64,000 nt of DNA, from the NCBI GenBank assembly GCA_030681595.1, contig JAUXSB010000033.1, positions 12,223 through 76,222 on the forward strand, in the 5' to 3' direction. Position 1 is the first letter of the stretch, and each line of letters begins with the position of its first letter. This DNA comes from Candidatus Omnitrophota bacterium (GTDB lineage: Bacteria; Omnitrophota; Gorgyraeia; Ghiorseimicrobiales; Ghiorseimicrobiaceae). The notes below the pieces were generated by a model. That model did no database searches. It saw only the letters and a program-made list of their open reading frames with translations, and was not told the origin of the DNA. The position numbers were made by a program, and so were the translations under genes. Below, one piece after another: positions 9,001 to 33,000 of the stretch.

Positions 9001-12000
9001 ATTCTTCTTAAATTCGCATAAAGTTTTCTTGTAAAAGGCGGGACATTCTCATCGTTAATATCAAAAAATATTAAGGATTCCTGCTTTTTAATTTCGTTTT
9101 CTAATAGTTTAAGGATATATGCATCATCATTTATGAATTTATCCGCCTGCGCCTTATTTAGAATTTTTTCAATTTGTTCTACAACATGCTTTAGCTTATT
9201 AACATTGGCTAAAATTATTGTTAATATATTTTCACGTGAAACATAATAGCCGGACAAATCTCCTTTTTTAATCTTTATTGCCCGGAGGCTATCTTCAAAG
9301 GCGCCCATATAACGAGGTAATCTATCTCTGATTAAATTTTTTATATTCTCATTGGTAATTCTGCCGTCAAATTCGACTATAGGTGAGGCGGCGGGTTCTC
9401 TTTTTCCTTCAACCTCATGTGCACTGCGGGAGTGCACACGGTTTATGCCTTCTGAATTCACCGGCGAAGCGGCGAAATGCTTTTCTTCGCTCGGAATAAA
9501 TAGCATAGAGTAGCCGCTATCCTGCTTAAAAATAAGCACTGCGGCAGAACCAGAAACAAGGACCCACCAGCCACGGAAGGAATCTTGTCCTGTATTAATT
9601 GCTCTCTGCCGCAGTGAAATATCCGAATTTGAAAGCGTTTTCTTATTTCCTAAAATAAAAATGAAGGGATAAATAACTTCTGCCGCGCTGATAAACGAGG
9701 CGGAAGAAGGAAGGATAAAGCTATAACTTGTAACTAATTTTTGCGGCGGGCTGTGCTCGGATAAAGAAAACCATCCAATCAGTTGATATATTGCCCCGGC
9801 GCCGGGAAATCCCCCACCAGCCACGGAGAGGTAGACTTCCCTAAAGAACGAAGCGCCGGAGACAAACGTATTTTTTAATGGAGAAGAATTACCTGTTTTA
9901 TCCCCCAAAAGCCTATTCTTATACTCATTTTCAAAGCCGGAATAATCATCATCGCAAGAACAATCTTCTCCGGCATCGAGGTCTTCTTCTGACAAGATGT
10001 CATCATATACATTAGTTTTAAATAACGGCTTAACAGCCTTCTTTTTTTCTACGCCGTTAATCTGCTTAAAGATTTGCTCCCTATACTCTTTTTTTAACTG
10101 GCATCCGACAAGATAAAACTTTATAATCTCATCTCGCTTTTTTTCTTTCAGAAACCTAATAATCTTTTCTTGTTGTTCTGCGGTTAAGATCTTTGAAACA
10201 GCTAATTCAAATACAGAGTACTTAGGTTCATATCTTTTCTTTAAATGTGCCTTAAATTTTATTAATCCGTTCTCAAGGGCAATCTGATACTGCGTAAACC
10301 TGTAAAGCCCGAACTGATATATAAGTTTATCCCTGCCAAAAATTATATTATCTTTATTTAACCCTAATCTATATTTTAGAATTTCGCGCTCTGTTTCATT
10401 TAAAGCATCTAAACTATCAAGGCCCCTGGCTAACTTGCCCTTAATTACGATAAACTCTTGGGCGCATACCCGGATAAAACCATCTATAACGTTATCAATG
10501 ATGCGCGGCGTAAGATTAAAAAACTTTTTCTTCTCTAATGCGGCAATCAGCTTCTCATGCCTATAGCCGTTTCTTATCCCTTCCTCAATAAACCTTAAAC
10601 GCAAAAGTTGCTCGTTGCGCTTAGCTATGCCTTCCATGTCATCTTGCCTAACGCTCCGGGAAAAAATAGGCAGCCTTTCTATATACAACTTCATCAATCT
10701 GTCTAGCTCAATGGCAGGAATGACCCCATAGATAAGCACATTTGTAATTACCTTTTTCTCAGCAATAGATATTTCCCTTATATCGCGAACCTGCTTCTCA
10801 TTAGAACGCTCCTCAATATAAGCCTTTAACTTATTATGGGCGTTTAAGGTTGGATTAACTTTTAAAATCCTAAGCAGGCCTTTTTCTATTCTGCGTATCC
10901 TATCACGCAACTCATGCTTTAGAGGGATTGAACGCGGCATTTTACTAAAAAACCTTGCTAAGTCATTTCTGACTAATTCTATATCCTCGCCAGATACGGT
11001 ATTTTCTTTAATATATAACTCTAACAAGATATTTACCTCCTGGTAATCTAAGCCCAAAAGGTTAACCAGTACGTCTTTTATGCTAGAGGCAAAATAATCA
11101 GAGTCTATCTTTATTTTTCCTTCGAATAAATCATTAAGTAAATAATAGTATTCTTCATAATCATACGACGCAAGCAAAATGGTTGGTATTTCTATAGAAC
11201 AGATATTATTCTTTAGGCCCCAGGCAATGCGTTTTAACGCTTCTTCAGCCGCATCTCTTCTGCCGATAATATCGTATCTCTCTGGGTGTTTTATGCCTAA
11301 TCCCTGCGGCCCTAATAAGGCATACAGCACCTCTTTATGGCTAGAGCGATGGTGCCCTATGCTGACAATCCGTAGTAAAATATGCTCAATACTCATTGTT
11401 AAATCATCCGCATTTATTTCGTAATGTTTAAAATAGTTTAAAATACTCAACTTAAACCAGAAGATAAACTGTTCAATATAATTATCAAGGTTGTCCAATG
11501 ATTTTCTGCGCTTTAAGAATTTAAGGGTGCGGGATAATTCATGTTTTATGTATTTTCTACCTGTATGGACAGCGATGGAATTATCTTTAATTATCGCTGA
11601 GCTGGAAGAGCTATGTTTGATATCAAAATCCCTGCCTTCCCAGCCGGGTTTGGTGTACCAGTAGAAGGTGAAACGTTCCGCCCAAGAAGGCAGATATGCC
11701 CTAAAGGCGCCTGCTTCATCACTCCATTCCAAGCGGACTCTGCCAAGATTATGCCAATCGCCATCTTCGCTGACTTTGGCAAATTGCACAAAACCAGGGC
11801 CATTAACTTGCACTTCCACCTGCTCAGTATCCGGATTAATCTCAATCGAATTAGCTTCGTATTCGGGAAAGGCCCAAGCCTTAGTCTTCTCTTGCGTCTT
11901 TATATTTCTGAAGAAATTAATATTTGCGCCAAAATCTACACCTGCCATCTGACTAATTTCTTCGCTGGCTTCATAGAGATTTAAAACTTGGCGGCTGTTT

Positions 12001-15000
12001 GCGCCGATTTCGATGTAAAGTTTATTCGCCAGTAAATTTTCTCCCCTTGTCAGGTGTAAACCGCGGATTTCACCGTTTGGCAAAACTTCCTCTATTAAAT
12101 AATCTTTCTCCGGGCTAATATGAAAAAATTCCGGTAGGGGTAGCCAGAAATTCTTTGTTTCCTGGTCGGTATTGTAAACCACTATACGCGGCGTAAGACT
12201 CCCTCCATCTTCTCTCGCCATATCAACATCAACCTGCACGCCATATGGCGCTTCACTTACTTCGCCTTTAACAATTTTCCATAAATAATCTTCGCGGCTG
12301 TTTGGCACCGGATAAAATGATTGGCCAAATTTACTACCGGCTATATTGCCATCTTCCTCTAATATCAAGACTTCCCTTCCATAAGGCGCAAGCACTAAAG
12401 AAACAAAACCTTCTCTAAATAATCCCTGCTTAATCTCGCGAGCTGAAATACCATGTTTCAAAACTTCACCACTTAAAATATTGCGCAGGCGATAGGCCTT
12501 ATTTTCATCTAAATCAGAGAAGAACGCGTCCGGCACGCCAAACCAGGCGTTCCTTGAGACACCGTATATATTCATATTCGCCACTACAAAAATCTTAGCC
12601 ATTTTATTCCCGGTTCTTGCGCTCCAGCCAATTGCCGCGATATCACCCAAGCGGTTATCAAATATTTCCGGCCACATCCCTCTTAACAAAGGAAGCTCAT
12701 GCTCTAATTTTTTCATAATTTCTAAAAATCTACTCTCTTTAAAGAGCGCGGGGATTCCGCCTTCCGTCTTTAAAATCATATCTACGTCTTCGGCCGATGC
12801 AAGCAGTTTATCGGGGACACTGGAAACTACTGCGCCGCGATGGCCTAAGGCATCGCGCATATCCACCCAGACAGATAAACCAAAATACGACATCGCAAAG
12901 AGGAAAATTAAATGGTTAAGGATAAACTCGTTTTGGTATTTATGGTAGTGCTTTCCAAAAAAACCAATAAAGATATCCCTGATTTTTGCCGAAATTGCCT
13001 GTTCGTCAAAATTGCTGGAGAAGCCATGATTGGCCGACCTTTTAGCTAAATAAAGCATAAACTCTAATACATTGCGGTACGTTAAGTCCCATTTGCCGGT
13101 GAGCCATTCCTCAACAAGATCATAAAGTTCTTTACGGTAGAGCCGGTCAAAGCCCACCTTTAGAGCGTAGTCGTAATGTGCCGGGTCTTCTTTTCCATAG
13201 ACTTCCGGAATGACTAATACTTCTATACCGATGAGTTTAGCCGCATCTTTTAACATAGAAATTACTTCCTGATAAAACTCGACGCGGCTATTGCTTAATT
13301 CGGGATATTCCTTAAGCAGAGAATTTAAATAGGTAATGATTTCTGATACCGAATCCATCTTTTCTGCGGTTTCAATCAATGAAGAAATAAAATTATTGTA
13401 ATCTTGCGGGGTCCTTAAGAAATCTTCCCTGCTTCTTAATTCCGGAGGCAAAAGATGGTACACGCAACTAAGCATTCCTTTTAAATGCGCGGTACTGGCA
13501 CGTTGTGCTAAGTCGCAGCGGAAAAACATCCGCGTATGGCCGGCATCTTTAAACCTTTTGGCCAGCCTTAGAAGATAATCTATGTAATATAGGCGCAATT
13601 CTTTGTTGAATAAATTGGGAAATGCCTGATCCGCATGCAAGACTTGCCCGATAAAGTTTGCCACCCAGACACGTTTATAACAATATCCATTATCATCAAA
13701 GTAACGCACGATAAAACCGCTATAATACTGCGGGTAAGTAAAGAGCCACTGGTCAATGAAGTCATTTAGTTCTTCATCGGTTAAGGAAACGCCTTTATCT
13801 CTTGCCTTTGTAAGTAGCCCATTAAGGAAAACATCACAAGAAACATTTTCCACATTTTCGCCGTTTTTGGCCCGGTTAAAGATGGCTTCAAGCCACTTAA
13901 CCTCTTCTTCTCTGACTTCTTTATGGAAGAATTTATCATAACCAAGCTCTAACACTGCTTCCGGAGCCATCCACGGGACAAAATCCCATACAATGGCAAT
14001 ACCTTTTTGCGCGGTTAATCTCAATAATTCGTCAAGGTCAGCATCATCGCCAACCACAGGATCAATTTCTACTTTCATGCTACTTTCTTCGACTCTACGA
14101 TAAAGTACCGAAAAGTTATTGCCGTAACGCGTATATAACTTCATCCCCTTACCGCGGCCATAATTAATAGTATAATGTTGTTTAATAACATAATCGTTAC
14201 CGGCATTAAGGTATATCTCGGCGCGGCCTCTTCTTATTTTAAAATATTTATTCTCCGGTCCCGTAATACCGCCTCTATGCAATTCCTTGCCTAAATCTCC
14301 TGACTCAAGCATGCCAAAAAGATAAATCACATTTCCGACTATATCGCCATCTCTAATAGCGCTAATAAGCTTTTTTAAACCATCCTTACTTTCAAACTGG
14401 CCTTTCCCGGCTTGTGCGCCGAAATCTTTTACATCCACCAAAAGCCCGAAGTCCGGCTTATCCGCGCGCCAGTACCAATTGCCATATATATCGTTTAGGG
14501 TGAAAATAAAATTCTTTAATTCCTCACTAAGGCGCGGATAATCTCGCAACTTTGCGATTAATTCGCCTATTTTTTCAAAAACAATATCATATAAACCGAT
14601 ACTGTCACTATATCTTTGCATCAAGTCCAGTAATAAAATTATTACTTCCTCATCAATTTTAGCTGTCTTCCTTAGGTCATTTAATTCTTTGTGAATGTTG
14701 AATTGGCTTATCGACTCTTCCATTTCTCTTAATGGCCGCAAGGATTCCAAAGCTTCCTCTATTCTCCTGCGCTCGCTATTGAGCCACCGGTCAGGCCTGA
14801 TATGCTCAATAAGCTTTTCAATCATCTCAAAGTTATTCTCAATAACTGATAATGCCGGTGCGTCTTTTACTAAAGACATTGCTTCGTTAAATAGCTCCGT
14901 AATACGAGGGTGTTCTTTCCTTGCCAATAGGCGCTGTTCCCTGCCGTCGTTAAGCTCAATATAGCGGCTTTGTTTTAACTCACGTCCGGATACCGGATAA

Positions 15001-18000
15001 TGGAAAGTTAATCCGGAAACTAACTCTTTCATACAATAAACTTCGTCATCTTCAATCCAGTTGATTAATCCTTCAGGAAATATAACTGTTCCTTCTGTGC
15101 GGCCGCCGTATTTACTCTTTGCGACAATCACCGGCCCCTCATCGGAAACATCAATATATACGATTAAGTTATCTGAAGACTCAATCTTCTTTTGGATATA
15201 TAGTTCCTGGACACCCACCACTCTTACCGAAAGGCCATCCTCTTTTAAGTTACGGCCTGAATATTCTCCATAAATTGCGCCTTTATCTTTGTCAATTATA
15301 ACGTAGGCCGCGTTATCATCAATTCCACCAGCCATATTCTCAAGCAGGAAAATTTTATCCTCTACCGGCTTCTCGCCATGATTTTCCAATATCAAATGCA
15401 AGCCCGCGATATTTTCCTTAAATGTAACGCTAAATTTCGCTTCATCTGAAATCGGCGAAGAAACCTCTTCGGCTAACCTATGCAGCTCCTCCTCAAACTT
15501 CTCTTTTGAGTAAGGCGGATGGATATTTTCTGCTTGTAAAATATGGCGAAGCGGCTCAAAAAATATAGCCATGGCGTAATTACCGAATTCCGCCCTGAAC
15601 CCGGGGAAATTCAATAAATCCTGGTTGTAATCCTTAAGCATTCTCCGCCATAACTCATTTGCCGCTTTTTCTATTTCATCGTAATTATCGGCATTCTTAA
15701 AATATCCCTTGATAAAAGGAAGGTACGGATTAACTCCTTTTTCTTGCGTATAAATATATTTTACTGCACGCAGCACCATTAACTCATGAATGCCCAAGAT
15801 TGCGCTTTCAATGCCAAAAAGCTGAGCAAGAAAAACCTGTTTTTCGCTTACCTCAGATTTTCTTATCACTGAGTCAAAATCCAATAAAACTAAATCCTGC
15901 GTTTCCTCATCAAGCTGATAATTGCCAGCATGGCAGGCAAGGCGTAAGAATCCCGCGTCATGAAAACGGCGTAATGCCTGTCCCAAGCTATAAAATTTAG
16001 GTTGTAAGAAATCTATTGCCTCATTATTATTGAGCCGATGCGAACGCCTGTCTTTTCCTAAAAGATGGTAAAAATAATCGGAGCAACCGTTAAATTTAAT
16101 CTTTTGCCAACCATTAATTCTTATAAACTCCGTATCAAAAAGATCGGCGAATCTTCTGTCTTGGCTGTCTCTTACTGCCAGCACAACAAACCCTACATCT
16201 TTATCTGCTAATTTATCCTCGTATTTACCCCATGCCATAGGAATATTCGCTGGGACACCCCTTAACATGGCTTCGCTTGCAATATCGTATTCCCTTTTTG
16301 CCCTTTCGAATAATAATGCTCCTTTAAGCCTTGATTGAGACTTGACCCGCGTAATTTTTCCTGCTTCATCAGCAGATAAATGATATGTCCTATCAACATA
16401 TGTTTCGGCTAACGGCATACTTACGCCTTTTCCAGAAAAGCTACCTATGCCTTTTATCTTTATACATTTTATTTCAAATGCCCTGCCAATATACACTATC
16501 TTCAACGGCTCTGAGAGATTAATATAAGCGCTTCTGCCAAGTGATTTAAACCTGGGTAAAACATTCCAGCTGGCTGTATTTTCTATTTGATTTCTTAAAT
16601 CTCCCGACAGAGCGATATCGCTGTTATAACTAATATATTCAATTTTGAATTGGTTATCGATAAAACAGCGCTGCATCAAAACGAGAATATTGGACTGGCC
16701 TATCCCGCGAATACCCCTAATTTCTTCCCAAGAACTAAATCTTTGGTTTGGTTTTTGGGAACGTGCTATTATTAATTGCTTTATTGCCCCCTTGGTTAAT
16801 AGGCCCAATCCTTTGAGTTCTGTTTCCGTTGCGCTATTTAAATCTAACTTATTCAGTGGTGAAGCACTTATACCTAAGAACGAATCTGTATCTGCAAAAG
16901 GTACAAATTTAATCTCAAAACCCCATTCATTAACAATATCTAAGAAATCACTTATATTTTCTGTTTCCAGCAATGCCTCTAACTCTGGAGGCAGTTGCTG
17001 GCCAAACACGGAAATCTCTTTATTTAACGCAAAAAATTCTTTGATCATCTCCCGCATTTTTTCACTGCCACGATAAACAATATGAGTTATTCCCTTGATT
17101 GTTATAATCTTATGTTCGACTAAGGCATTCGTTAGGTCGTATATACCTGCTATCAACACCATATCTGTCGGCCCCGGCAAGTTGCATTTCCAATTTTCTC
17201 CAATAACAGGATGGGTATGGCCCAAATCTTCAATAACTGCATGGGCTTTTTCGGCTATATTTCCCTTAAAATCGTTAAATACTGCTAAGTCCTCCCCTAA
17301 GGGCATAATTTTCTCTCCAGACAGAACATATCGTGCTAACCCTTGAGCCACCCTGCCTTCCTGCACTGTCCTGCCTTTTCTAAAATACCAGATGTCGCGC
17401 GCTTTAAGTTTACCAAAAACTACTTCTGCGTCTTTACCTTTATCGGCAATCATCCGATAAAAACTTTCTGATTTATGTACCGAAGACGGCATATCTAAAA
17501 CTCTAATTTGCTCACAAGGCTTTAAATTCTCTATTAAATCGGATAAGTCGGAAAGTGCTCCGAATCTAATAGTTATTGTTCGGGGAATATACGTTGCTAT
17601 TTTCTCAATGGTATATCTGATAATTTCAATCGGGTCGCTGCCTTTTATTAAAATATCAAGCCCCATGCCGGGGACATTTTTCTGATAAGGGCTTAAGACG
17701 GCCATTCCCCCATGTTTTAAAGGCCTAAATTCCTCTGACTTCGCGAAGAAGCTTCTAATATTCTGCCTTAAGCTTTCTCTGTCTGTTACAAATAAGTTAA
17801 CATTAGCCAGCTTATTAAGCTGATTAGTAAGTTCCTGCCTAGCCACCTCAAATTCTTCATCTGAAACCATAATGCCAAATATGCCTTTAGAACCCTGCCT
17901 TAACAGAGCAATCAACTCATCAATCTGCTGTTGTAGATTTTTTTCGAGCGGGGAGGCGGATTCACGGGAAGAATTAGCTTTTAAATATTTAACCAGCGCG

Positions 18001-21000
18001 GTAGCTTTTTCTGCCTTATCAGTAGACGGCCTACCCAATGCCGCATCCAATAAATCATCAAGTGTGGCATCTATGGGCATGCGCGCGCGCCAGTTGGGAT
18101 GCGTTGAACCCGGCGCGGGGTCATTAACCATACCTTCCTTACCCTGCATAAGGATATCGGATAAAGAAAGAACGGCTATCCTTGCCGGAGACTGATAAAC
18201 CTTAAGTAATATGTCGCGAAGAATTATTTCAACTGCCGAGCCTTTCGCCGTAGAATCATTATAAAGCCAGCTTAAAACCGCTTCGCGCTTATCCGGCTCC
18301 AATTCCTGCCACCACATTAAAAGCGTCCGCGAATCATGCAGGCCGAATGTGGCATAGGCATTTTCTTTATGATTAGGGAAGAAATAAGGATTAGCCGGAT
18401 TCCAAGGGGTAGCCCCAAAAACTCCGGGCAGATAATTCATTACCCCTAATTCTTCGAGAATCGGCGGCACAAAATCCGGTACTGCGCCTAATGCCTCGGT
18501 AATCATCGCGGCATTATTTTCTTTGGCTGTTGCAAGGAGAACTCTTAGCGTTTCCTTGCCCGGAGAAAGCTTAAAGAATCCTGCCCTTAAGCCGTCCGCG
18601 GGCTTGGGTGATTTTTGCGGGTCATCCGGAAAAAGGTACTTCATCATCTTATGCATATGGAATATCTTAAAGTGCTCCTGCAGCTCAGTAGATAAATCGG
18701 AAACCGCGATAAAATCCCAAACAGGTTGGCCTTTGAATACAGCCTTCTCAACCACAAAAGGAATCCTAAACCAACTATTCGGCTCTTTCTCGCTTTGGGC
18801 TTCTCTGGCAATCAATATCATATTATCCGGCCTTAAATTTCCTTCTTCATCAAATATATTGGTGCGCACATCTGCTAATCCGCGATAATTCTTAAGAACT
18901 AAAATCATCGCTGTATAAACTTTTTCTGCCAACTCAAGCCGCCTGTCAGGATAAACCATTCCTTCTACTATCGCCGCTTCTACCATATCCCAAAGGTTTA
19001 ACTTCTCTAAAGTCATTTCATCATCAACATCTTCTGTGAATAAAAACGCGCGGAAAAACCCTAGGGCATGGTCTAACCTTCTATAACTGACTTTATCTAA
19101 CTGGTATCCAAAACGCGCCTGCCAGAAACGAATAGTTTTTATATATTCCCAAAGATACGGGAAGAATTGCCAGTATTGGCCGTTGTCGCTAAAGGCATCG
19201 GGCGGTACCCCTTGCGAGAAACGACGCTTAAAATCAGGAGCACGTAATCCGAATACCTCTGGTGTAATCCAAAGGTCAGCGCCTTCGACGGCAAAAGGCA
19301 CGTCGTCCATAATATCTACGCCTTTATCTTTTCCGCATTTGATTGCCTCGCTCCATTGAGAATCGAGAATCCACTGGAGGAATATTTGGTAGGAAATTTC
19401 TTCTTGGTGTTCTTTAAGTGTGGCTTCTAATGCCTCTTTCTTTCTTAGCCGTAAATCCATCGGCCACCTGCGCCAATCCCAGCCATTGGGAATTTCAGAA
19501 CCGTATTTCTGCTTAAGAATTAGATAAAGTATGTGGTCAAAAATCCATTCTTTATTCTTACGCGCGTATTCACCCATCGACTGCTTAAGCGCGCTATTTT
19601 CCGAATATTTCCTAAACTCTTGCCAAACCATACGCAGTGCCAGATATTTAATCTCTCTGGCAAGGCTATAATTAACTAACTCCTCTTTACGCGCGTATTC
19701 TATTTTTTCTCGGATTAACTCAAGATAACGCTCTGCCTCTTTAGAGGGGATTAATTTTAACAATTTTTCAATGCTGATATAAAGCGGCTCTTTAAGCTTT
19801 GTGCTTGCCACTGAATACGGTGAATCGTTATAACTTGATATAATCAGCGGCAGCACCTGCACGATTCTCTGCCCCCAAGCCTTGGCAAGCTCAATTGCGG
19901 TAAATAGCGAACCCATATCGCCTATGCCTAAATCATTTTTGCTTCGTAAATAGGATAACGGGCCAAAGAAGCCGTCGATTTTCTTATTCAGCGGCGAGGT
20001 GGAGGTTTGGATTTTTTCTCCGGCGGGGCCAGAGGAAAAAATTAAGATATCGCCAAGGGCAATATCAAGCACAAAAATATTATTTTGGAAAATTGCGACA
20101 TTCATCGGCCTTTGTAAAATTCCTTCTCCAACCGTTCCTATTAATTTTCCTTCTGAATTGAATTTTACAACATGGCTAATCCCTTCAATGCAAGTATATA
20201 TATTCTTTTGTTTATCCGGCTCCATATCTAAAATAGCGCCCTGTGCCTTAATAACCAGCCTGCCTTCATCATCACCCTGCTTATGATACGAAAAAACCTC
20301 ACCCGAAGCATAACCCGCATAAATACCGCCTTCAATATCGGCAGTTACGGATACGGCTACTCCCTGCATTATATTTATAGCACTTCTAACTATACTGCTG
20401 TCGTTATCGTAAATATTTACTTTATTACCCTTATCATCCAAGATATAAATGAAATCATGGTTATCTACATAAATATCGCTTAATGAATCCGCCCCAGCGC
20501 CAAACATAGACAGGAATTCGCCTGTATTCCTAAAGAAAACTAACCATCCATTGCTTGCCGCTACCAAGATATCGGTAAACGGTTTTTTCGTTTCAAGATA
20601 TTTATAGATTAAAGACTTACTTAAAACACCTATTCCTTCTATCTCGGATAGCCCAAGGTTTCTTATTCCCGATTCAAGAAATTGCGCGCTGACTTCCTGC
20701 TTAACCTGCCTGCCGGTATTAATATCAAAGATAATTAATCCTTGAGCGCCATCCAAAACATAAACCTCCCCTTTATATACGGCCATTGCCGCGGGTTTAA
20801 TTATCTGCCTTCTTCCGTTTTGCTCACCAAGAATCCCTCTAAATTCAAAATTATTCCAAATAATAGGCAACTGATTATTATCCTCCGCTGGAGAAGAGAC
20901 AGGCTTATCTTTATTTTGCGCCGCAGGTAAAGAAGAAATTTGAATTTGCTCATAGAATATATAGTCCTTAAGCGTTAACGGCGTAAAGTATTCCTCGTGC

Positions 21001-24000
21001 CTATAGAACCAATCAACGCCGATTAAGTAAGGCCCGTACGCATTAGACCACTTGGGGATCCCGCCATACTTTAAGATTTTCTTCACTAAATCTCGCGCTG
21101 GCCCTTCGACATACTTATTAATTTTTGCATCGCCGTTCAACAATAATTTTTGTGATTTTTCAAAATCGCCACCGGTTTTAAATATAATTCTAAACTTGCC
21201 ATCAATGGCCTCTAACTCATCGAAACTCCCCCAATAATTCGACACCGCGATAGTGCCTGGAAAAACCTTCTTTATTAATGGCAATTGAGAATCCCAGTCT
21301 CTATCGAGCCTGCGCATTAATCTATCTGTAGTCTTCTCTAATATATTAGTGATACGCTTTATCCGTTCCACTTCCATCGGCGAGGCTGATTTTTGCAATA
21401 CATAGAACTGAAACGGCTCACCGTTGAAAATATCACGCTCGGTCGTATTTAAAACCCTAAAACCGTAATCTTTAAAATCATGGCTATCAAGTAAAACGGG
21501 GGTTGCGCCGGTAACAAATATAAAGCCGTTTCTTTTTATCGTCTCCCCGACTTTCTTAAATAATCCTAGCGCCTCTTTCTTAGAAGACACAACTTGCCAA
21601 TTAAGAAATCTTACCAAGCTAAGGTCAAATTCAGATTCATATCTAACGGCTAAATCACCTGCATCATAATTACTAAGCACGCGCGTATCCAAGCCCGCTT
21701 TTTTAAAATTTTTGGCGGATTTGGCGTACATATTGATTGAATAGTCATTGCCATAGAGATCTACTGCATGGTTATATCTTTCATAAACAGAAAGCAGCAC
21801 TTCCGCAGTAGAACAAGCCGGATCGATAATTTTTATCGTCCTTCCTTTTTTCATTTCACTGCCAAAGATGCTTGCAATCCATTTATTTATGCCATGGGTT
21901 ATCGAAGGATTTTCTTTAAGGAGATCATCCATTGCAATTACATCCCATTCATCACGGTTAAACGCTGGCTGAATATCCGTATTCTTAGATATCAACTCGT
22001 ATTCTGTTTTTGAATTTACTAAGAAAGCGCGTAACTCTGGCCTATCGTGATGCTCAAGCATTATCCTGCCTAAATTAGGGACAATAATCGAATCCATATA
22101 CCGTGTACCGGCATGGCGCTTTATTATTATCGTTAGGCCTTTAAAGGGCGCTTCGAAATAAAGATTTAATGCCCTGGGCAGCGCATTAGTTATTTTTCTT
22201 CCGGCCTTTAATTTATTCATGAAACGCTGCCAAGACAAATTAAATTCCTCGCTATCAGCATCTATATTTTTCTCCATAAATTTCATCGGCGAGGTGGCAG
22301 CAGTTTCTTCAATATTCTTCTTAATATATTCAATCCTCTCCCTTGATGAAGGGTGATATTTTAATCTCGAAAACGGCGTTATCTCCATTTTCCCTGCTTT
22401 CATCGCCATTTCGCGCAAGCGCGGAAGATTATCTATGGCGCTTATTGCATCATCAATAGAAAAACCCAATTGAATCGTTAATCGGGTTGCGCTCAAATCC
22501 ATTTCGTGCTCCATCGCGCGCCCTTTTTCCTGCAAACTAACCTTCTCCTTTTCTTCTAATTGTTCAACTATACAATATATAAGGTCGATAATAAGTACTC
22601 TGTATTTATCGTTATTTTTGACATGGAAAACCTCATGAGCCAATAGAAAAACAAGCTCTCCCTTCTTTACCGTGCCATTGGCATATTGTTCAACCAGCCA
22701 TTTAAGTAATAATATTTCCCCTGTTGACACATAAAAACCAATCAAAGCCACGGATGTTTCTATAAAATCTAAGGCTGGGATAACAGAAACGCGCGCTAAG
22801 GACAATATGGAATTAAACATCTCCCTGATATCATTTTCTAAATCCTTAGAGCTTTCTTTTAAAGGTGAGGCAGTAGCGCAAAATTGGCGCATCGCCTTAT
22901 AGGTTTGTTTAATAAACCGCCTGCGGGATTCGGGTGTTTTAGTTTTAAAATGGGAATGAATAGCAACGAAAAGATTGTCGAAGCAGCAACCGGGGGACCC
23001 TTGAGCTATATAGCCATGGGTAAGAGAACTTCTTGTTACAACGGTTAATGTTAGCCTAAATTCCGGCGGGCCTGCCCGAATGAAGTCAGGCGGGCCTGCC
23101 CGAATGAAGTCAGGCGGGCCTGCCCGAATGAAGTCAGGCGGGCCTGTCTTAAATCGCTGCAATTCTTCAATCCATTCCTTGAGGAATCCTCTATATTCAT
23201 CAGAATACCTTCCCTTCATCTCCTTAATTATTCTATAGTTCCTTCCGGAGGAGAATACTTCAAATTTAGCCAGTATTGATTCTTGTCCGTATTCAGCGAC
23301 AGCTTTTTTATCGGCATCTTTCGGAAGCTTTCCATGCCCAACAGGACTGCTTGCCCAATCGGAATAGGCCAAATACTGAATAATTGGGTTTAACGGCCTA
23401 TTTTTCCCCAGCGGCGAGGCGGCATGTTTGGTTAACCGGTTATCCTGTTGACCGGTTGTCCGGTTAAAATCAAAATAGTCTTTTAACTGGCGAACCGGCA
23501 AACTGGCTAACTGGCAAACCGATAACACCGGCGAGGCGGAGATTTCTTTCTTGCTCCCCAACAAAATTTCTTTTATTGCCGCATCCTCCAATAAATCACC
23601 TTTAAGCTGAACGATAATTTCCTGATTTTCTTTGGCGCGGCTTACAAAAGACAAGGTATCACCATTTATGGGTGAACCTGAGGAGCGCCCCCCTTCCTCG
23701 CCTGTTTCCTCTGCCTCATCAGCATATATTTTGGCTTTTTCGTAATAGTGAAACGCGTTGATAATATCTTCGCTTGCGGGGGAATCTTTTCGCCAAAATC
23801 TGGCTTCTAATATTCTTGCCCGCAACGTAAAGAAGAGGCTGAGGTTACTGCGGCTTTCTTGAGTCAGTTGATAAAAACTGTCTATCTGGCGGGCATAATA
23901 GTTAAAAGTTTCTTTCTCCAGTAGTTCCGCTAAAGCTACCTCTTCAGGATAAGTGTATAGTAATACCTCCGTGTATTTTAACGCCAACCCTGTCTTACCT

Positions 24001-27000
24001 TCGCCTAAAAGAGAAATAATCTTACCCATTTCTACTTCAATATATGAGGCGCTGCCTATCTCAGAAAGCTCTATATTCAATTCTTGCGCCCTTGCCAGAT
24101 AATTAAAGGCCTTTGCGTAAATTCCGAGTTTATTATTTAATTTTCCGAGTTTAAGATGTATATCCCTTTCAATTTTATCCATCAAGTCCATATCATTAAT
24201 TAAGCGATAATAATTACCCCTTAAATTCCTTAAATGGCGCAGGCTTTCCCGATAAATCTCTTCGGCCAATACAAGATTATCTCTTGCTTCATAAACATAA
24301 GCCCTTAAGGAAGCAATGATGACATTGTAGATAGAATTTTTGCCTGTCTTCGCTTTCGCGATGATTCTTTCCGCTGAATCTATATCATTATTTGACATAG
24401 CGCTATACGCCTTTCCCAACAAATCAAACAACCTCAGATTACGCAGGCCTATAACGCTCTTATCAAATTTTCTCTTTATCGGGCTGGAGTTAGCTTGCGG
24501 CGGGTTTTCTTTATCTTCAGGGATATTCTCTAAATAGAACCTTAAATTCTTAGGCACAATCTGAGACCCGCCGTAAATGTTATCACGAATAAACCGTAGA
24601 TAAGACTTGTAAAAGACATTCCTTACATCATACAAGGAAACACCTAATACATGCGCCAGGCCTGGAATAGGGCCTATACCCTTAATGAGAAATTCGCAAT
24701 CTATATATCTTTCATAATCTGGATCGGGAAACCAACTTTGTCTTGCAAAAGTTTCAAAATCGCCTACGAATTTTATCTGAATTTGGTTATTTTGTATTAG
24801 AAGGCGTAAATTCCCTATATGATGGTCACCCCCAGAATCGAGCTCATGTCCCGTGTAGCCCAAAATATGGATAACCGCTGTAAGTTCTGCTGCCTGTTTA
24901 ATAATAATCTCGTTTAATTCGCCTTTTTCTAAATTTAACTCTTTCGTTAAATTGTTAAGGAACTTTTGCGATAGAAAATTTAATCTTTTCCCGTCTTCAT
25001 ATTCGAAAGCGATAATCCGTAAAGGGCATTCCAAGTTGAATTGTATTTGTTTTGAATAAAATTCATAAACGCCTTCAGCAAACTCTTTATGATAGAACGG
25101 CTTAACACAATATCTATCGTGAGGAAAATGGCTTAGAATATCTAAAGATACATTTTGACGTTCCTTGATAAACACTTCCCGTTTATGTAATTTTTCTCCG
25201 GGGATTAAAACTTCAAACGCAAAATTAATATTATCTTCATTATCAAAGCTAAAAATTATGTGACGGCGGAAAGACTCTGTGATAGGAGTTATAAAAAGAT
25301 TGCGCCCTACCTTAAAAATTATTTCTTCATTCTGCGCATATTCAAAAGGAAAACAGGAGTAATTTTGCGTCAAATCATAAGGATATGCCCTTCGCAATAA
25401 AGTTGATAACTTAAAAAATTCCTTTGCATTTTTTTCATCTTCAAAAAGCACATTGCATGCATCTTGTATAGTATCTATATCTGAAGATATGAAAAACTCT
25501 GTCGCCAACAAATTACTGAAATTCATATTTACCGGCGAGGCGGAAACATTAACAAGGAATAAAGAATAAATTACGGCTTTGCCGCTTCTGCTTACGCGGG
25601 CATCAAAAGTAGAAAAGACGAGCTCTTCAGGAACATAGCCGTCCTTTATTATGCCCGGACAATATAAAATAAAATTTGCTCCGGGCCTAAGATTCTCGGC
25701 TAATTGATAGAAAAATTCATCTTGATCCTCCAGGCTTCCGGCTAAATAATAATAAATTACGTCGAATTTACCGATATCCGCCTGTAAACCATTCCCGAAA
25801 GATCCTAAGAATCCGTAATCCTTAAATTCCGGCGAAAGCGGCGCCACCTTATCTCTATAAACTTTTTGCGCGTACTTAAATACATCCGGATTGCTTTCGT
25901 ACCCTGTTACTTCTGCGCCGAGTGTTTTCCAAATATACAAGTTTCTTGCATCGCCGAAACCAAAATCCAACGCTACTTTATCCGGCCCAACGCCTGCCTC
26001 TAAAGCTAAATAAATTAGATCAAGCATGGGTGCCGGTATAAATGGCCCTTGGCTTGGGTTTTCTACATCATCTATGACCACGCGCCGATAAGATTCATTC
26101 CTATCCAGCTCATTGAACGTTTTCATCAGCATATTTAACAGTTTATTCTCTTGAGAATTCTCAACGAAAGAATGATCCGTTAGGGGTGAGCCAGTAGCGA
26201 ATTCTGAAAGATTCAAGTGCCACAATTCTACCTCTCCGCCAAGACGGAACTTGATAAAACCGAATTTTTCTTTTTCAAGCAAGTGCGACCTCTCTAATTC
26301 CTCATCACTTATAAATAAATTTTTAAATCTGACTTGTTTTATCTTAAATTTATCCCTATAAGGATTATGGTAATAGCGCCGCAGGCTGCCTTGGTCAATC
26401 TCGCGATGCTGTATTTTGACTAATTTTCTTGGCTTGGCATAAAGATCACGGATTCCAGAAGTTTTAGCGGCTTTGATAATCGCGTAATTTAAATGGTTCT
26501 CCCATCCGCTAAACTTTTCCTGAATATCCTTAATCCTGCGAAACGCATATGAAGGCTGCACTTCTTCAATCAGCACTGAAGGCGTCTTCTCAACGCCAAT
26601 AAGAGATATGGCGGAAAAACCGATAGTTCCCGGCGGTACTTGAATCCGCGTAGTTGCCGCTTCATATTCCATTGCCCTCATGTAGTCTTCTATATCGGAA
26701 TCCCCGGAATAGATATTAAGATGAATTTCTTCGGGGAAAGCACTCAATGCCTCTAAACGAAAACCCTTTGAATCAAGATAGCCGCCGGCCACTTCCTCAA
26801 TGTGCCTTATAACCCGATGATAAAGCTCTTTATGCTTTTCGTAATCTTCATCATGTGTTGGTGAAGCACTATTTTCGCCCTCCATCTCTGAAATTAACTC
26901 TCTGGTGAAATTATTACGCCGCCTCCTTATGTCAACAAAACTTCCTCCGTTATCTATATATGTGTTTATTAAAGAACTCAAGGGCGAACTGCTTATCTGC

Positions 27001-30000
27001 TCTTTATATACCTCGGTAAACCAAGAATACGGATGTTCGGCACAGATTTCCCCTAAATGCTTCTTGATCTCTTCGCTAATAGCCGCATTCTTCAGCGAAG
27101 CGGAAATAATCTCGGAAAAGATGAATTCTCCCCAAGGCTGCCATAATTCGGCGCTGAATGTCGGGCTGGTCAGACTGGCCAAAAACTTCTTGAGGCCCGT
27201 TAAATCAGCTCCCTTTTTAATAGCCGCTATATTACATGTCAGGATCTCAACATAACCTACTTCATAAATGCTGTCTTTTTCCGCCCACTTTGCCATTGCC
27301 CAGGTAATAACCGCAGGATTATGTCTAGCGTTATTCTCTAAGATTTTTACTGCCGCGGGATTATCCAAAATCATGCCGACTATTTTTTCAACGTCCATCT
27401 CTGTAAACATATCCGGGTATCTCTTTTTTATATTCTCAAGCAACGCCACCCTATCAAAGACAATATTATCAATCCAATTTGCCGGCCGCGACGCTTCCGT
27501 TGCCGCGCAAAGAAAATCAAGTATCATAAGCTTGTTTATAATATTAACCATCTGTTTTTTTCTTCTGGGAGACAATTTATTGTAATCCGGGTCATTTAAA
27601 AGCAGATCCTTACAGGTGCCCCCTTTAAGCAAAAAGCGGTGGTGGTTACGTATCGCAATCCTTAACCTTAGGGGGGCTTTAAACTTGAGGTTGTCTAATG
27701 TGTTTTCTGATTGAAACGCATGCTCTATCATTAAATCCTGCAACAAAGGATCATCGTATTCCAGCTTGCGCGGTGTCAGAATAATAGAAAGGTATTTATG
27801 ATTAATACTTTTGCCTACGTCGTGCAGCCGTGCCGCAATATCAAGCAGCCTGAACTCGCTATAACTTAAACCCAATATGCCCTTAACGGCGCCTAAAAGC
27901 TTAGCCACATTCTCAATATGTTGCAGAGTAATAAAATCATAAAGCCCTAAAATATCGTCCATTCTTAAAGAAGAAAAATAATTTGCCCAGCCAACCAGGC
28001 GTAAATCCCTCATTTTTGACTTAGTGTGTTTTAGGGCCTGGGAAATAACAAAGCTTATCTTTTCCAGCGCGTCAGAACCTTTTTTGCTAAGCGGGCTTGA
28101 GCCATGTTTATCCTTAATTGGAAGCGCTTTCAATTTAGGCAAAATAAAAACGGGGCGGGCAAATTCTGAAAAACCAAGAGGCGAACTGCCATTTTGCTTA
28201 GACTTAAATTCCGTAACGAACTTACTTGCTTCCTCGCGGGCAAGAATAAGGTCTTTGACTACCCTTTCTCTATCTACATTGGCATAGACCACCTGATTTA
28301 CGGCATGCTCAACAATCGCTTTAAATTGCTCATCAGAAATAAAGCTAAATGCCTCTAATATCTTAATGACATACTCTCCCTCTTTCTCAACAAACGGCGC
28401 GTAATTCACTATATCGGGAATAACGATATTTTTGCCCCAGACATGCACGAATACATGGTCCTTTAAGAAGTCTTTTACTATTAAATCCAACGCCTTTAAA
28501 CCATGCATAACCTTCATATGTTCGCTATCTAAATGCTCGCTCGCAGTAAGATGTTTATGCTGGGAAGAAAATGGTAAAACAATGTAGGGCAAGCTATCGG
28601 GCTTAAGATGATTGATATAATGGCTCTTTTTAACAGGAATGCCCAATAATATAAGCAAATCTTCGATAATCATATGCGCCACAAGGCGCTCGCGTTTTTC
28701 CGCCTGATGCAGGACAATCCTGCCTTCCGGATTCATATGCCTTATTTCAAATATAAGATGGCGCATCAGCCTGTAAATGCTTAAATCATCCAAACTCCTT
28801 ACCTGCGTTACCCTGTATCTTCTCTTTAATTGCTCAGGCGTCAATTTACTAATTTTAGCCTTAATTTCTTCCCTATTATCCTTTTCAATATTAGGATAGA
28901 TGGAAGAAGCGCGTAGCAGCAAAAATATAGACTTAAGCCACTGCTCAACGCTTAAAAAGACAAATAAGGCAATATAAACAAACCGATATTTTGAAAGAGT
29001 TACTAATTTCGTGGAAATAATCTTACGCCCATTAATATATTCGCCTGTTTCTATCGAACTAACTGTCGAAAGCTTGGCGATTTTATAAATCTTTCTTTGC
29101 AGCATAATGGAATGCAATCTTGCCTTGATTCTGTATAATTCTTTCATAAAGCGGTATAATTTTGATTTTTCATCAAACCATGCCTTTTTATAGAAACCGG
29201 GTATTGTTTTCCTCAAAAATCCCCAAATTATGCCTCTCTGCGCTTTTTCTTCCAGATATGCCTGAAACTCCTTCAGATTCAATTTATCATTGTGGTCTAA
29301 GAAACCCCAGAATTCGCCTGTTCCGATAATCTGCTGGTAAAACCTTTCTTTTATCGCGGCATCTGTTATTCTATCCAAGTTATCCATATATTTAAGAAAT
29401 TCTATGACGGTTCCATAATATATGCTCCTCTGCTTCTTTTCACTGAGCCCATAAAACTTAGAGAGGCTGTCTATCCTGTCGCCGTATTTAATGATAAGCG
29501 CGCCTTCGTTTCTGCTTCTTGCTAATTTTATAAGATATATTATGTCTCTTAAACTTTCATTCCAGAGATTGCACCAGCTCAAATCCGGCTTGGTAAGAAG
29601 CGTTACCATCTCGGCAACTTCACTGCCGAACTTATTTCTTATGTAGTCTAAGGTATAATCCGTATCCTCTAAGACATCATGGAGAATAGCCGCGATAATA
29701 GTATTTTTATCTTTAATTCCCAGTTCATTTATTATAAATATGGCTAAGCCTATAGGATGAACGGCATAAAATGCAGTCCCGCTCTTACGTATCTGCGCAA
29801 AATGCGCCTTTTTCGCCAATTCACAGACAAACTTAATATCATACATATCATCTTGACTAAACTTAAGATTATGCTTTTCTATAGTTTCCATTAATAAAGC
29901 TATCATTTCGTCTATGGTAAGCCGCATCCCTCTTATCTTTGCTAGGGCATCCTCAAAAGAGAGCTTTACTGAAACGCGCCTGAAATCTCCGCGTGTCTCT

Positions 30001-33000
30001 GCCCAGTTAATAAGAAAACGCGAGATAATTTTTGTTGATTTATCCAATGCCTCTAAATTACTCTTGGCTTTTTCTCCCTTAGCTGCCTCCAGCGCAATAT
30101 TAACAAACCTAAGCGTCTTAATTAACCTGCGCTTGTATAGTATTCTTGTAAGAGCAGGCACTTTTTTATAAAGAGCGTGGCTGCCGCTTAAGATAAGTTC
30201 TAAAATGAAATTCCTGTATTTAATCATCGCGGCGTCTATGGATATATCTTTCTTGTTGTGGCCCAAGTTATAAAGGGCATTCTCTACCGTCCCAAGCGGA
30301 ACAGCGTCTCCGTAGTATAATCCTATAAAGAATAAGACGCGGCGCGCACGCACGATATCAACCCTTGAGCCTACGCCCCTTAAATTACTATTTTCGGCTT
30401 CTTTTATTAATCTTTGCAGAGGCGCAAAATTCCTATCTTCAAGATTTGTAAATATGTTAATAATTTTGGTTATGCTAGCAATATCGGGAATGCTTATCCC
30501 TGCCGGTTTTAACAATTTATTTAAACTACCGTCCCGATAGGACTTTCTTAGCTTATCTACCGAAGAGATGATATTTTCAAATTCTATATGTTTATCTTGC
30601 GAAAGAGGCGAATTAGCGGAACTTTCAGATAATCCCTTTAAAGATATTTCATAATTTAATACTAAATTCAACCATTTGTTGTATTCTTTCGCCTGTTTAA
30701 TCAGTAAAAGTAAATCATTCTCTGTCTGAGTCATTTCTTCAAAAAGTCCTTCAAGTCCGTTAATAATAAAGTAATCTTCCAAAACTCTAAAGATCCATTT
30801 ATTTTTGCCGGATATTTCGGCTATCGCACCCAGGATATTACTTCCCTTGCTATCCTTATCATACAAACCAATAACCTCATCTAACTGATACAGGCCGTCA
30901 GCATCTTTAAACTCCATCATTTTTCCGCTTAATCCAAACAGCGGATCTTCCTTATCCTCAAGCCGCTCCATAATTCTTTCTATGCGCGCGACCAGATAAC
31001 CGAAGAAGATATAGCGCTCTTTCTTTGTTATTATTTTCTTAACGAGCCTAACGATTTCACTTCGCTGTACTTCTGATAGAGCACCGATCACCCCTGATAA
31101 ACCTTCAGAAACCATACTGTTAAATATATCGTCTAATTCAATATATGGCCCTGCCTCTTCTTCGTTAAGCTCAATCCGCCTTAAAATATCTCTAAGCCCA
31201 TCAACATTTTTCTCCAAAATGCTCTCTTTTGACGGCATTGCCCTTACCTTAACTTGCGCTAAAGATAAAAGTTCTTTTGCGTAATCTAATTTACGGATAT
31301 CCTTCGCTTTAACTTTGCCCTCTTTCTTTTTCTTCTTATTTATCTCTTGCAGCTTCTTTTCAACTATCCCTTCTAATACTTCTGCAATAGCCGGCCAGTC
31401 TGCCGCAAGAACACCAAAAGCCTCTAAAAAGGCATGATATATATTTTCATCCTTTATATTATCAACCGATATCTCCAATAAAATTACCCATTCAGCTTTA
31501 GATTCCACCGCGTTAAGCAAATTCGTAAGATACGCTGGATAAGAGGCTATAATTTCCCTTATCGCTTCTTTCGCTTCTTCCCTAAGCCTGCTTGCATCCT
31601 CTGCCTCTTTTGTCTGCGCCACGCGAAGTGCGGATAAGGCCAGATTGTTGTACATGCTGCCTTCTTTGACCCCCAGCTTCCTTGCTAATCTCCAGTGCTC
31701 AAGGCATTTTTCATCCTCCAAGCCAAAATATGCATTTCCTAAGAGAAACTGCAGATCCGCGCTTTTGGTATTTATTTTTTCTGCTTTTAAAAGCTCAACT
31801 TTTGCTTCCTCATATCTCTTTAAGCTGATAAGGCATCTCGCCAAATAAATTAAAACATCAAATTCACTGGTTTCTTTATCGCCATATTTATTCTTTATAA
31901 ATATCCCAAACTGCTCTAATGCCTTATCAAACTTACCCCAGTTATAATACACACGGCTCAACATGTTATATAGGAAAGATTCATCGGGATAAAAGCTGAT
32001 TACTTCAAGAAGCGTCCGTTCTGCCTCTTCGTATTCTTGCTTGTTATAATGCAGGACAGCCCTGCTGTCTGCCAGCTTTATCTTGAGATCATCTATTAAA
32101 CCTGTTAAATCCGGTGTTAATGTTTTGGCTTTCTCCAAGGCTATTTTAAAAAGCTCGATAGATAACTCATAGCTTTCTTTGAGATAAAAATATTCCCCCA
32201 TTTTGCCTATAAAAACAGGGATGAGGCGCGCATCTTTAGCAACTATTTGTTCTTGGATGATTACTTTTTCCACAGCATCTGTCAGCGGATCGCCGTTCTT
32301 AAGTGCAGACTTTATTTTAGCGGCAAACCCTGCTATCATCCGCTCCATAGCCGCCTTCTTCTGGTAGTCGATACCTAACATTTTTTCTGCCTGCTTTTTA
32401 GCGTTAGTGTCCATCGGCCCGCCAGAATGACATTGTCGGGCTGGCGAGGCGGCAAGAAATTCCTTGACGCTGATAAATTTATCAATGATATCTTGAGTAA
32501 TTTTAAGATGTAAATTTACTTCTTTGGTATAAAAGAATATGCTAGACACGCCCTTCTTCAATAATTCCATCCTTATCCAAGTCACAACATCTGCCTGAAA
32601 CTCAGATAATTCGCCAAAAAGCATTTTTTCTTCATATTTTTTAAGATTGCCCCTAATGAGGTTAGCTTCTTTTAGGATATCTACCCTATTATATTTCTGA
32701 AGGAGAAATTCTTTTATAGGCACATAACCGTATTTAGGTAAATTATAGGTATCAACCAATATCCTATCCTTAAGGTTGGGATCAAACTGCATACGCGTAG
32801 GGCAGATCAACGACTGGGTATTATATTTATCCGTGGCGCGAGTCCAGACATGCGCGCGTTTTTGACCATCATAAATAAAATATCCGCCTTCAATAATAAA
32901 ATTGATTTCGGGGCTGCCGCCACCTATTATGCCGGATATTTCAGATAACGCAGGAGTAAGTATATTGTTAAAAGCAGCGCATATCATTCCCTGCTCTAAA

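Follow-up and report, generated by a model that had tools for sequence, protein, structure and literature searches.

A Ser-Pro Motif at the Ends of Stand-Alone-Sized Modules in a Giant Omnitrophota Open Reading Frame: A Possible Polyprotein Cleavage Signal

The window analyzed here, a 64,000-nucleotide stretch of contig JAUXSB010000033.1 from a Candidatus Omnitrophota bacterium, is occupied by one open reading frame (ORF) of at least 64 kb that extends past both window ends. The ORF strings together about 60 cassettes of ordinary protein size, which meet at a short motif with the consensus x-[S/A]-S-P-[L/I/V/M]. This anatomy, and the assignment of the ORF to the giant "multi-enzyme" type known from Omnitrophota, can be stated with considerable confidence. 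The explanation that we favor for the whole, with a probability of roughly 0.5, is that a giant multi-enzyme ORF of the Omnitrophota kind is cut as a polyprotein at its Ser-Pro motifs.

On the minus strand (3..63998), in the frame in which codon i begins at coordinate 63998-3i of the window, none of the 21,332 codons is TAA, TAG, or TGA. Each of the five other frames carries between 714 and 2,191 stops, and the longest ORF on the plus strand reaches at most 179 aa. Coding periodicity, with G as the top base at codon position 1, was present in all 21 consecutive 3-kb blocks, and codon usage along the ORF is uniform and natural looking. Given zero stops and uniform periodicity, the entire window is therefore part of a single unbroken ORF of at least 21,332 codons, open at both window ends. 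Separate genes that share one frame by chance are ruled out by the lack of stops at ~60 junctions together with the uniform periodicity, and an alternative genetic code or stop-codon reassignment is unnecessary for a frame without any TAA, TAG, or TGA. Searches of the whole 64-kb window found no tRNA genes and no Rfam families, and no marker genes lie within it. Many distinct Pfam families tile the ORF, none of them dominant by copy number: GH77, Hexokinase_1/2, M48, Methyltransf_23, Methyltransf_25, GFO_IDH_MocA, HD (three copies), HD_4, HATPase_c, AP_endonuc_2, PHP, SIR2_2, TPR, and GerE/helix-turn-helix (HTH). A crude hydropathy scan marked 15 transmembrane (TM)-like segments.

At its core the motif reads [A/S/T]-S-P and then L, I, V, or M, and S is favored one position before this core. 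There are 49 sites that match [AST]SP[LIVM], whereas 300 composition-preserving shuffles averaged 2.1 and never exceeded 6 (~23-fold enrichment; Poisson p ~3e-48); for [AST]SP alone, 61 sites were counted versus ~8 expected. Successive sites are a median of 257 aa apart (mean, 342 aa), and half of the intervals fall within 150–500 aa, the length of ordinary bacterial proteins. In ten cases the interval is below 50 aa; these reflect doubled junctions, in which two motifs are parted by a spacer of 13–40 aa. Other junctions are extended to SSP[AT]...SG[RG]P. Four such long, two-part junctions lie on the minus strand at 60086-60048, 52055-52017, ~34526-34480, and ~32450-32412, for example SSPATKKSGRPA. 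Each consists of [S/A]SP[A/T], 4–10 residues, and SG[R/G]P, followed by M, L, or E; in two of the four an Ala is inserted before the last residue, and Met follows directly in two. The one at 60048..60086, VSSPATKKSGRPA, stands between a methyltransferase module and a Gfo/Idh/MocA module, and those at 52055-52017 and near aa 9824 and aa 10516 are similar. The motif avoids recognizable domains: at most one of the 61 [AST]SP sites lies inside a detected domain, versus nine expected, which bears out the idea of a preliminary description of this DNA that linkers delimit modules.

The positions of the motif were compared with the ends of stand-alone homologs. A full-length hexokinase module (446 aa, 42968-41631) is flanked by SASPL at 42983-42969 and SASPL at 41630-41616, the whole unit occupying 41616..42983 on the minus strand. 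It covers positions 2-201 of 201 in Hexokinase_1 (PF00349) and 2-242 of 242 in Hexokinase_2 (PF03727), and it has PDB hits. When eight stand-alone hexokinases (439–457 aa) are aligned with it, their Met1 falls 1–2 residues past the first SASPL, and the homologs end no more than a few residues from the next one. At the cassette boundary, the former C-terminus and the site of the former initiator Met are separated by four inserted residues, xSSP or xASP. The module is ~50% identical to bacterial hexokinases of 439–457 aa, and its best match among 5.8 billion proteins is ~52% identical. Its homologs in relatives are separate genes, in keeping with the preliminary view that once-separate genes had been joined: the search gave 1,505 hits, and nearly all of the 120 listed are 430–480 aa long.

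The GH77 4-alpha-glucanotransferase module (17961..19988, minus strand) is likewise full length, with 676 aa that include an insertion of ~150 aa. Glyco_hydro_77 (PF02446) matches in two chunks over model positions 3-460 of 465 (E-values 1e-63 and 2e-20), and 15 amylomaltases in the PDB match the module. Since amylomaltase residue 20 aligns at query position 1204, residue 1 of the Thermus enzyme extrapolates to the first residue after the junction STSPL (19989..20003). At the other end, the match stops ~15 residues short of where the PDB chain finishes; from the last aligned query position it is ~28 residues to the next linker, SASPL (17946..17960), which closes the module. For the methyltransferase-like module (298 aa, 21390..22283), assigned from a below-cutoff Methyltransf_25 match and stand-alone homologs, an exhaustive HMMER search found ~60 stand-alone homologs that match query positions 570-717, with their C-termini where SASPM sits (718).

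Other boundaries follow the same rule. The histidine kinase HATPase_c match ends at aa 5590, where SSSPI starts, and the Gfo/Idh/MocA Rossmann fold begins 4 aa after SGRPA (60062). Several modules also open the way independent proteins do: SGRPA-MAKKTQDD at 52031-52017 (linker at aa 3993) is followed by TM helices, and signal-anchor-like helices stand 3 aa past the linkers at aa 1989 and aa 3663. Self-BLAST showed that internal paralogs start at linkers. At every boundary where homologs allowed a comparison, the modules thus appear to be complete proteins of stand-alone size with linkers at their ancestral termini.

The preliminary description had confined the polyprotein to 19860-23545, whereas the ORF spans the whole window and continues beyond it. 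Read along the minus strand, the region from about 23545 to 17946 opens with junction SASPV (23526..23540), a 34-aa spacer peptide, and junction AASPL (23409..23423). Next comes junction ASSPV (23340..23354); paralogous modules at aa 866, 3837, and 13549 all start at a linker. It is followed by a 155-aa module (22875..23339) that belongs to a lineage-specific paralog family found by self-BLAST. Within this module lies a tandem peptide repeat of FIRAGPPD, GPPDFIRAGPPDFIRAGPPDFIRAGPPEF (23046-23144, aa 13618-13650). IRAGP is also the C-terminal core of the SecM translation-arrest peptide, a resemblance that may be coincidence. Junction TASPL (22860..22874) leads into an M48-like metallopeptidase module of 187 aa (22299..22859) with the motifs HEVFH, MEHEMD, and HPSSRER. 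It scores 24 bits against Pfam Peptidase_M48 (cutoff 20.3), covering only model positions 42-143 of 186. The HExxH and the downstream Glu in its ExxxD context are intact; HEVFH, MEHEMD, and HPxxxER are kept in an alignment with the related proteins P0130, P0135, and P0139; and in the exhaustive HMMER search homologous matches stay within the module limits. Its AlphaFold2 (AF2) model is poor (predicted local distance difference test, pLDDT, 63), and a fold search with that model gave no significant match. Beyond junction ATSPM (22284..22298), the methyltransferase-like module, and junction SASPM (21375..21389) lies a helical module of 158 aa (20901..21374) with a paralog at aa 1840-1948; P0131, P0134, and others match it over query positions 720-880. 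Junction VSSPA (20886..20900) then separates it from a repeat-rich module of 294 aa (20004..20885), which precedes the STSPL junction and the GH77 module. SSP is invariant here in the alignment with P0128 and P0129, and the homology block starts at this point. The repeat-rich module had no Pfam hit and, on its sequence and NHL-like repeat pattern, is probably a beta-propeller; it shares 37–39% identity with P0128 and P0129. For the unannotated modules, sequence searches of NCBIfam and the PDB gave no further information.

The six linkers of the preliminary description exist, within 3 nt of the positions it gave; ASSPV at 23354-23340 and VSSPA at 20900-20886 had been overlooked. Module sizes come out at 39, 183, 192, 303, and 462 aa, close to those proposed, with the qualification that the "460-aa" module is split by VSSPA into 163 and 299 aa, a division backed by homology. 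Homolog alignments for the hexokinase, GH77, and methyltransferase-like modules uphold its view of complete, stand-alone-sized proteins with linkers at their ancestral ends, and the amylomaltase alignment agrees with its placement of the canonical GH77 N-terminus directly after a linker. The coordinates also confirm that the hexokinase and Gfo/Idh/MocA modules are bounded in the same way and that SGRPA-MAKKTQDD is present. Two of its proposals fared less well. The survival of start codons after linkers is weak, with Met directly after the junction at only six sites and no Shine-Dalgarno enrichment. An ancestral operon does not fit modules that are functionally mixed (sugar enzymes, methyltransferases, HD, histidine kinase, HTH, TPR, SIR2, and a kinase-like fold) and whose order is unconserved in relatives.

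Relatives of the ORF were sought in several databases. The window sequence itself was not found in GTDB species genomes, JGI metagenomes, IMG/VR, or an index of 5.8 billion proteins, and a word-index search with the region around 23545-17946 returned no relatives; only the exhaustive HMMER search yielded them. A 5,000-aa query gave only seven protein hits, all mosaics of 3,328–6,971 aa, and all seven match through one module only. This module (24576-25529) follows SASPV at the linker at aa 12818, the two together occupying 24576..25544 on the minus strand. It is ~320 aa long and was modeled by AF2 as a protein-kinase-like fold (pLDDT 90). By sequence it matches nothing in Pfam, NCBIfam, or the PDB; by structure, Foldseek matches include PknB, IRE1, DYRK1A, and SRPK1. 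It carries the motifs PITESFRRH, EDGKRL, DHHxGNFRL, and VGDF. A profile of the module found 14 loci in GTDB genomes, seven of them labeled Omnitrophota or Omnitrophica. In all 14 the ORF that contains it measures at least 1,926 aa, and many such ORFs run off the contig or the fetched locus. The module recurs, up to four times per protein, in the giant ORFs of P0121-P0127 and L003-L016, and metagenome-assembled genomes (MAGs) that contain it are labeled Omnitrophota, Planctomycetia, Auribacterota, Elusimicrobia, or Chlamydiota. It looks like an undescribed kinase-like family that marks giant ORFs, and it ties the window to the giant ORFs of Omnitrophota MAGs.

Of the 14 loci, one shares the motif: L015 (JAZDMX010000004.1, Candidatus Omnitrophota) has 11 sites against 0.73 expected. 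Its methyltransferase, GerE/sigma-70 region 4 (r4), and LspA (signal peptidase II) domains lie between linkers, and it shares only two modules with the window, at ~30% identity. The exhaustive HMMER search added two more motif-bearing ORFs, P0128 (20 sites versus 0.65 expected) and P0129 (8 versus 0.26). In P0128 a Response_reg domain starts ten residues after a linker. The probable beta-propeller cassette occurs in P0128 (664-959), P0129 (1209-1494), and the window with 35–39% identity; in all three ORFs it has SSP at both ends, and its neighbors differ. The recurrence of motif and cassettes in distant, independent ORFs that otherwise have little in common with the window shows that the Ser-Pro punctuation is natural, old, and maintained, and it is confined to a subset of giant ORFs. 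A correlation between the kinase-like module and the motif was considered and is ruled out, as 13 loci have the module without the motif.

The codons at the junctions were used to judge the level at which the motif is constrained. For the central Ser, 19 sites use AGY codons and 42 use TCN codons, near the ORF-wide ratio, and the Pro and hydrophobic codons vary as well. The same mixture of AGY and TCN is seen at the linker Ser in L015 and in the loci L017 and L018. Because both Ser codon families are used, here and in these three relatives, the constraint lies on the peptide, and selection at the junctions acts at that level rather than on the DNA. In its nucleotides the linker has two versions, which cluster apart along the ORF: TCCGCCAGCCCGCTT in its 5' third (58034-38648, minus strand) and TCCGCCTCGCCG(N)T(N) in its 3' part (25544-1529, minus strand). 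This regional clustering suggests that cassettes were duplicated or gene-converted locally along with their linkers.

Several known arrangements resemble the window ORF in part. The polyproteins of viruses, for example picornaviruses, potyviruses, and flaviviruses, consist of one ORF with many mature-protein-sized units, a short junction motif, spacer peptides, and an embedded peptidase. The window ORF likewise has protein-sized units, a junction motif, short spacers, and an embedded peptidase module; it differs in being cellular, about 10 times longer or more, and loaded with metabolic and regulatory cargo, and in that its cleavage is proposed rather than established. Its motif is Ser-Pro-hydrophobic, whereas viral junctions are cut, for example, between Gln and Gly. 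In nuclear-encoded plastid polyproteins of Euglena and dinoflagellates, conserved short linkers between complete proteins are removed by a protease. Those polyproteins are eukaryotic, repeat the same or a few proteins, and measure tens to a few hundred kDa, whereas the window holds dozens of unrelated enzymes. AROM, CAD, fatty acid synthases (FAS), and the nonribosomal peptide and polyketide (NRPS/PKS) megasynthases are uncleaved fused enzymes of one pathway that have carrier or docking domains and no conserved tetrapeptide linkers. They share with the window the joining of formerly separate enzymes in one chain; the window has no single-pathway set of domains and no carrier or docking domains, and its linkers are conserved. 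Bacterial genes have also been joined in frame by short protease-site linkers in engineered "fuse-and-cleave" nif polyproteins with tobacco etch virus (TEV) sites (PMC6130400). As in those constructs, the window linkers stand in for stop, intergenic, and start junctions; the constructs are synthetic and contain few genes and a known protease, whereas the window ORF is natural.

Giant multi-enzyme ORFs of Omnitrophota have already been described (Seymour et al., 2023, PMC10066038; West-Roberts et al., 2023, bioRxiv 10.1101/2023.11.21.568195; Nielsen and Lui, preprint of June 2026, bioRxiv 10.64898/2026.06.07.730766). They are among the longest genes known, and the literature on their function asks explicitly whether the product is one chain or is cut. 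Nielsen and Lui catalogued 916 proteins of at least 10,000 aa, including a class of "multi-enzyme metabolic clusters" that contain methyltransferase, HATPase_c, HD, hexokinase, signal-peptidase-II, and HEAT/NHL/TPR domains. The window ORF resembles this class in that it exceeds 10,000 aa and diverse Pfam families tile one chain; its methyltransferase, HATPase_c, HD, TPR, and hexokinase are all named there, as are NHL and signal peptidase II. It also has the few annotatable domains, the poor sequence conservation, and the scattered TM helices of Omnitrophota giant ORFs, and its relatives are mostly Omnitrophota MAGs. Nielsen and Lui read the products as single membrane-anchored chains, and the terms linker, cleav-, polyprotein, fusion, and proteol- have zero instances in their text. 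The giants of West-Roberts et al. (2023) reach 85,804 aa; their proteolytic maturation was suspected, with cleavage points said to be unknown. With the Archaeovorin/Dockerin-type giants of that study the window shares an Omnitrophota giant ORF with methyltransferase, glycosyl hydrolase, and peptidase domains. It differs in that its 64 kb contain no dockerin, TSP3, C39, S8, or SecA_DEAD, the N-terminus, where C39 would be expected, being outside the window. All of these papers regard the product as a single chain and report no junction motif; the window ORF has boundaries that carry a conserved Ser-Pro motif at ancestral termini, a property of only a subset of such ORFs. The giant-ORF architecture is thus already known, while the junction motif and its coincidence with ancestral termini appear to be undescribed in the searchable literature; the preliminary statement that this is not a described system appears to hold for the punctuation and fails for the giant ORFs.

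We favor a processing signal because a strict, short motif is found at every testable boundary with selection at the peptide level, and because it has been kept across deep divergence and changed contexts. Doubled sites with spacer peptides, and modules that start with signal-anchor-like helices, are further reasons, as are the DNA-binding or regulatory modules (LuxR/sigma-70 r4 HTH and response regulator), which should need release. It is hard to picture these working while tethered in a megadalton chain. The ORF would be translated as one precursor, and an endopeptidase would cut it at or beside Ser-Pro, freeing the individual proteins; the embedded M48-like module is only a candidate for this protease. 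We put this cleavage mechanism at slightly less than an even chance. More tentative still is the full proposition, in which the bacterium, whether it lives freely or as an episymbiont, would make dozens of ordinary cytosolic, membrane, and regulatory proteins from one ORF of more than 64 kb in place of separate genes, cut by a dedicated endopeptidase between the Pro of [S/A]-S-P and the hydrophobic residue that follows.

A number of points weigh against a cleaved polyprotein. Cleavage, the scissile bond, and the protease are all things that we infer. No Ser-Pro-specific protease was identified in the 21,332 aa, where the sole recognizable peptidase is the one weak M48-like module, and we know of no M48 enzymes noted for Ser-Pro sites. 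Leu is a destabilizing N-terminal residue in many bacteria, and a cut after Pro would leave it at the N-terminus of about one-third of the products. Making enzymes, regulators, and membrane proteins from one polyprotein forces their equimolar synthesis. There are also four stretches of 1,000–1,900 aa without a canonical motif. Finally, the motif is lacking in 13 of the 14 giant ORFs of the kinase-like-module scan and in P0121-P0127, and the giant mosaic architecture therefore does not need it.

That most related giants lack the motif is also the reason why an uncleaved megaprotein stays a serious rival, though we consider it rather unlikely. The product would then be one membrane-tethered chain, and [S/A]SP-hydrophobic would be a conserved inter-module hinge or cap or a modification site; the embedded kinase-like modules could phosphorylate Ser in a proline-directed manner, or Ser in the Ser/Ala/Pro stretches could be O-glycosylated. 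The literature treats such ORFs as single polypeptides with many TM helices, our search of the ORF identified no processing protease, and the same ORF encodes a high-confidence protein-kinase-like module, some of whose fold matches are CMGC kinases. This module is, however, found in the 13 motif-less loci, and module and motif do not co-vary. Known flexible linkers are far less specific than a four-residue motif with an invariant Ser-Pro, and it is not obvious what doubled sites with short spacers would do as hinges. Released proteins are a better fit for the internal signal-anchor-like starts and the DNA-binding modules.

Explanations at the level of nucleic acids (RNA structure, Shine-Dalgarno words, Rfam families, and out-of-frame stops) found no support. 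The motif might be the translated footprint of a DNA recombination site, left by in-frame insertion, duplication, or shuffling of cassettes, somewhat in the manner of integrons or shufflons, and without a role in the protein. The linker codons are GC rich (TCC GCC ... CCG) amid DNA of 40% GC, their two nucleotide variants are clustered by region, cassettes recur in varied contexts, and paralogs begin at linkers. We nevertheless regard this as improbable. The use of both unrelated Ser codon families in the window and in three relatives, together with the variable Pro and hydrophobic codons, means that a peptide is conserved and not a DNA word, which also rules out a DNA repeat or mobile element as the main cause of the junctions. 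No recombinase was detected within the window, and RNA folds at the linkers are no more stable than random (minimum free energy not different from that of random windows, p = 0.94); DNA inverted repeats were not searched for directly. The folding result, with the lack of any Rfam family or tRNA, rules out terminator remnants or RNA structure as well. Somewhat less credible again is translational punctuation, through stop-free release of the StopGo/2A kind, a frameshift to a nearby stop, or initiation after the Pro codon. Pro is central to known stalling and skipping peptides, the FIRAGPPD repeat recalls the SecM arrest motif IRAGP, and the codons GTG, ATG, ATA, and CTG are common right after the linker Pro codon. 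On the other side, the 2A/StopGo consensus D(V/I)ExNPGP is not matched and NPGP is absent from the ORF, and we know of no bacterial precedent for stop-free release. Shine-Dalgarno-like words before module starts are not enriched and are, if anything, depleted, which rules out internal initiation led by them. A frameshift into an adjacent out-of-frame stop had looked promising by eye, but such stops just after the linker (22 of 49, versus 37% in controls, p = 0.15) are not enriched when the hydrophobic codon is taken into account and are explained by hydrophobic NTR codons in AT-rich DNA. We give hardly any weight to an artifact, whether mis-assembly, a chimera, or synthetic or engineered DNA. 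The lack of the window from GTDB species genomes, JGI metagenomes, and IMG/VR and the modest identity of the best hexokinase match would be in keeping with it, but 21,332 stop-free codons whose usage and periodicity are uniform would not come from a chimera. The motif and the cassettes are also seen in independent assemblies from NCBI and JGI, and the synonymous variation among linkers looks evolved.

Under the polyprotein reading, a short motif at the ends of stand-alone proteins supplies concrete candidate cleavage points for Omnitrophota giant ORFs and renders the hypothesis directly testable. It also gives a rule for splitting such ORFs into units for structure prediction and annotation, and published inferences of topology and function from a single chain, such as the placement of hexokinase-like enzymes outside the cell, could change. 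If the reading is true, stop codons, intergenic regions, and start codons would have been replaced by a proteolytic "punctuation code," and this code would set which mature products arise from at least some of the largest known ORFs (up to 147,000 aa). If cleavage is confirmed, cells would be seen for the first time to use a virus-like polyprotein strategy on a large scale for housekeeping-type proteins.

Further features of the ORF and its relatives were noted. SIR2_2 and, after it, TPR repeats lie in a stretch of 1,360 aa without a canonical linker (~34570-38640, minus strand, aa 8451-9811), which may be a single large protein; the combination resembles NAD-depleting defense proteins. Cysteine makes up 0.42% of the ORF (90 of 21,332 residues). 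The coding strand is strongly purine rich, and plus-strand GC skew is ~-0.16 throughout the window.

P0129 is complete at 2,420 aa and is encoded on L018 (JGI 3300041085, Ga0452209_028675) amid genes of toxin-antitoxin type: Fic, RHH, and NTP_transf_2 with HepT. It contains the reverse of the two-part junction, RGPVSSPA, within a 24-aa repeat present in two full copies and one partial copy. P0129, P0130, P0135, P0139, and P0166 share a conserved N-terminal domain (LWVNL...TDMGR), and GGID[LF], which is not present in the window, recurs in them near C-termini and beside SSP linkers. The entire contig of L017 (1-12160; NCBI GCA_043815445.1, JBDRIY010000110.1) is one stop-free frame, with the same 58 nt at both ends. 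This implies a unit of 12,102 nt, or 3 x 4,034: either a circle that carries an "endless" ORF in frame, or a 12-kb tandem repeat that lies within a giant gene and has been collapsed.

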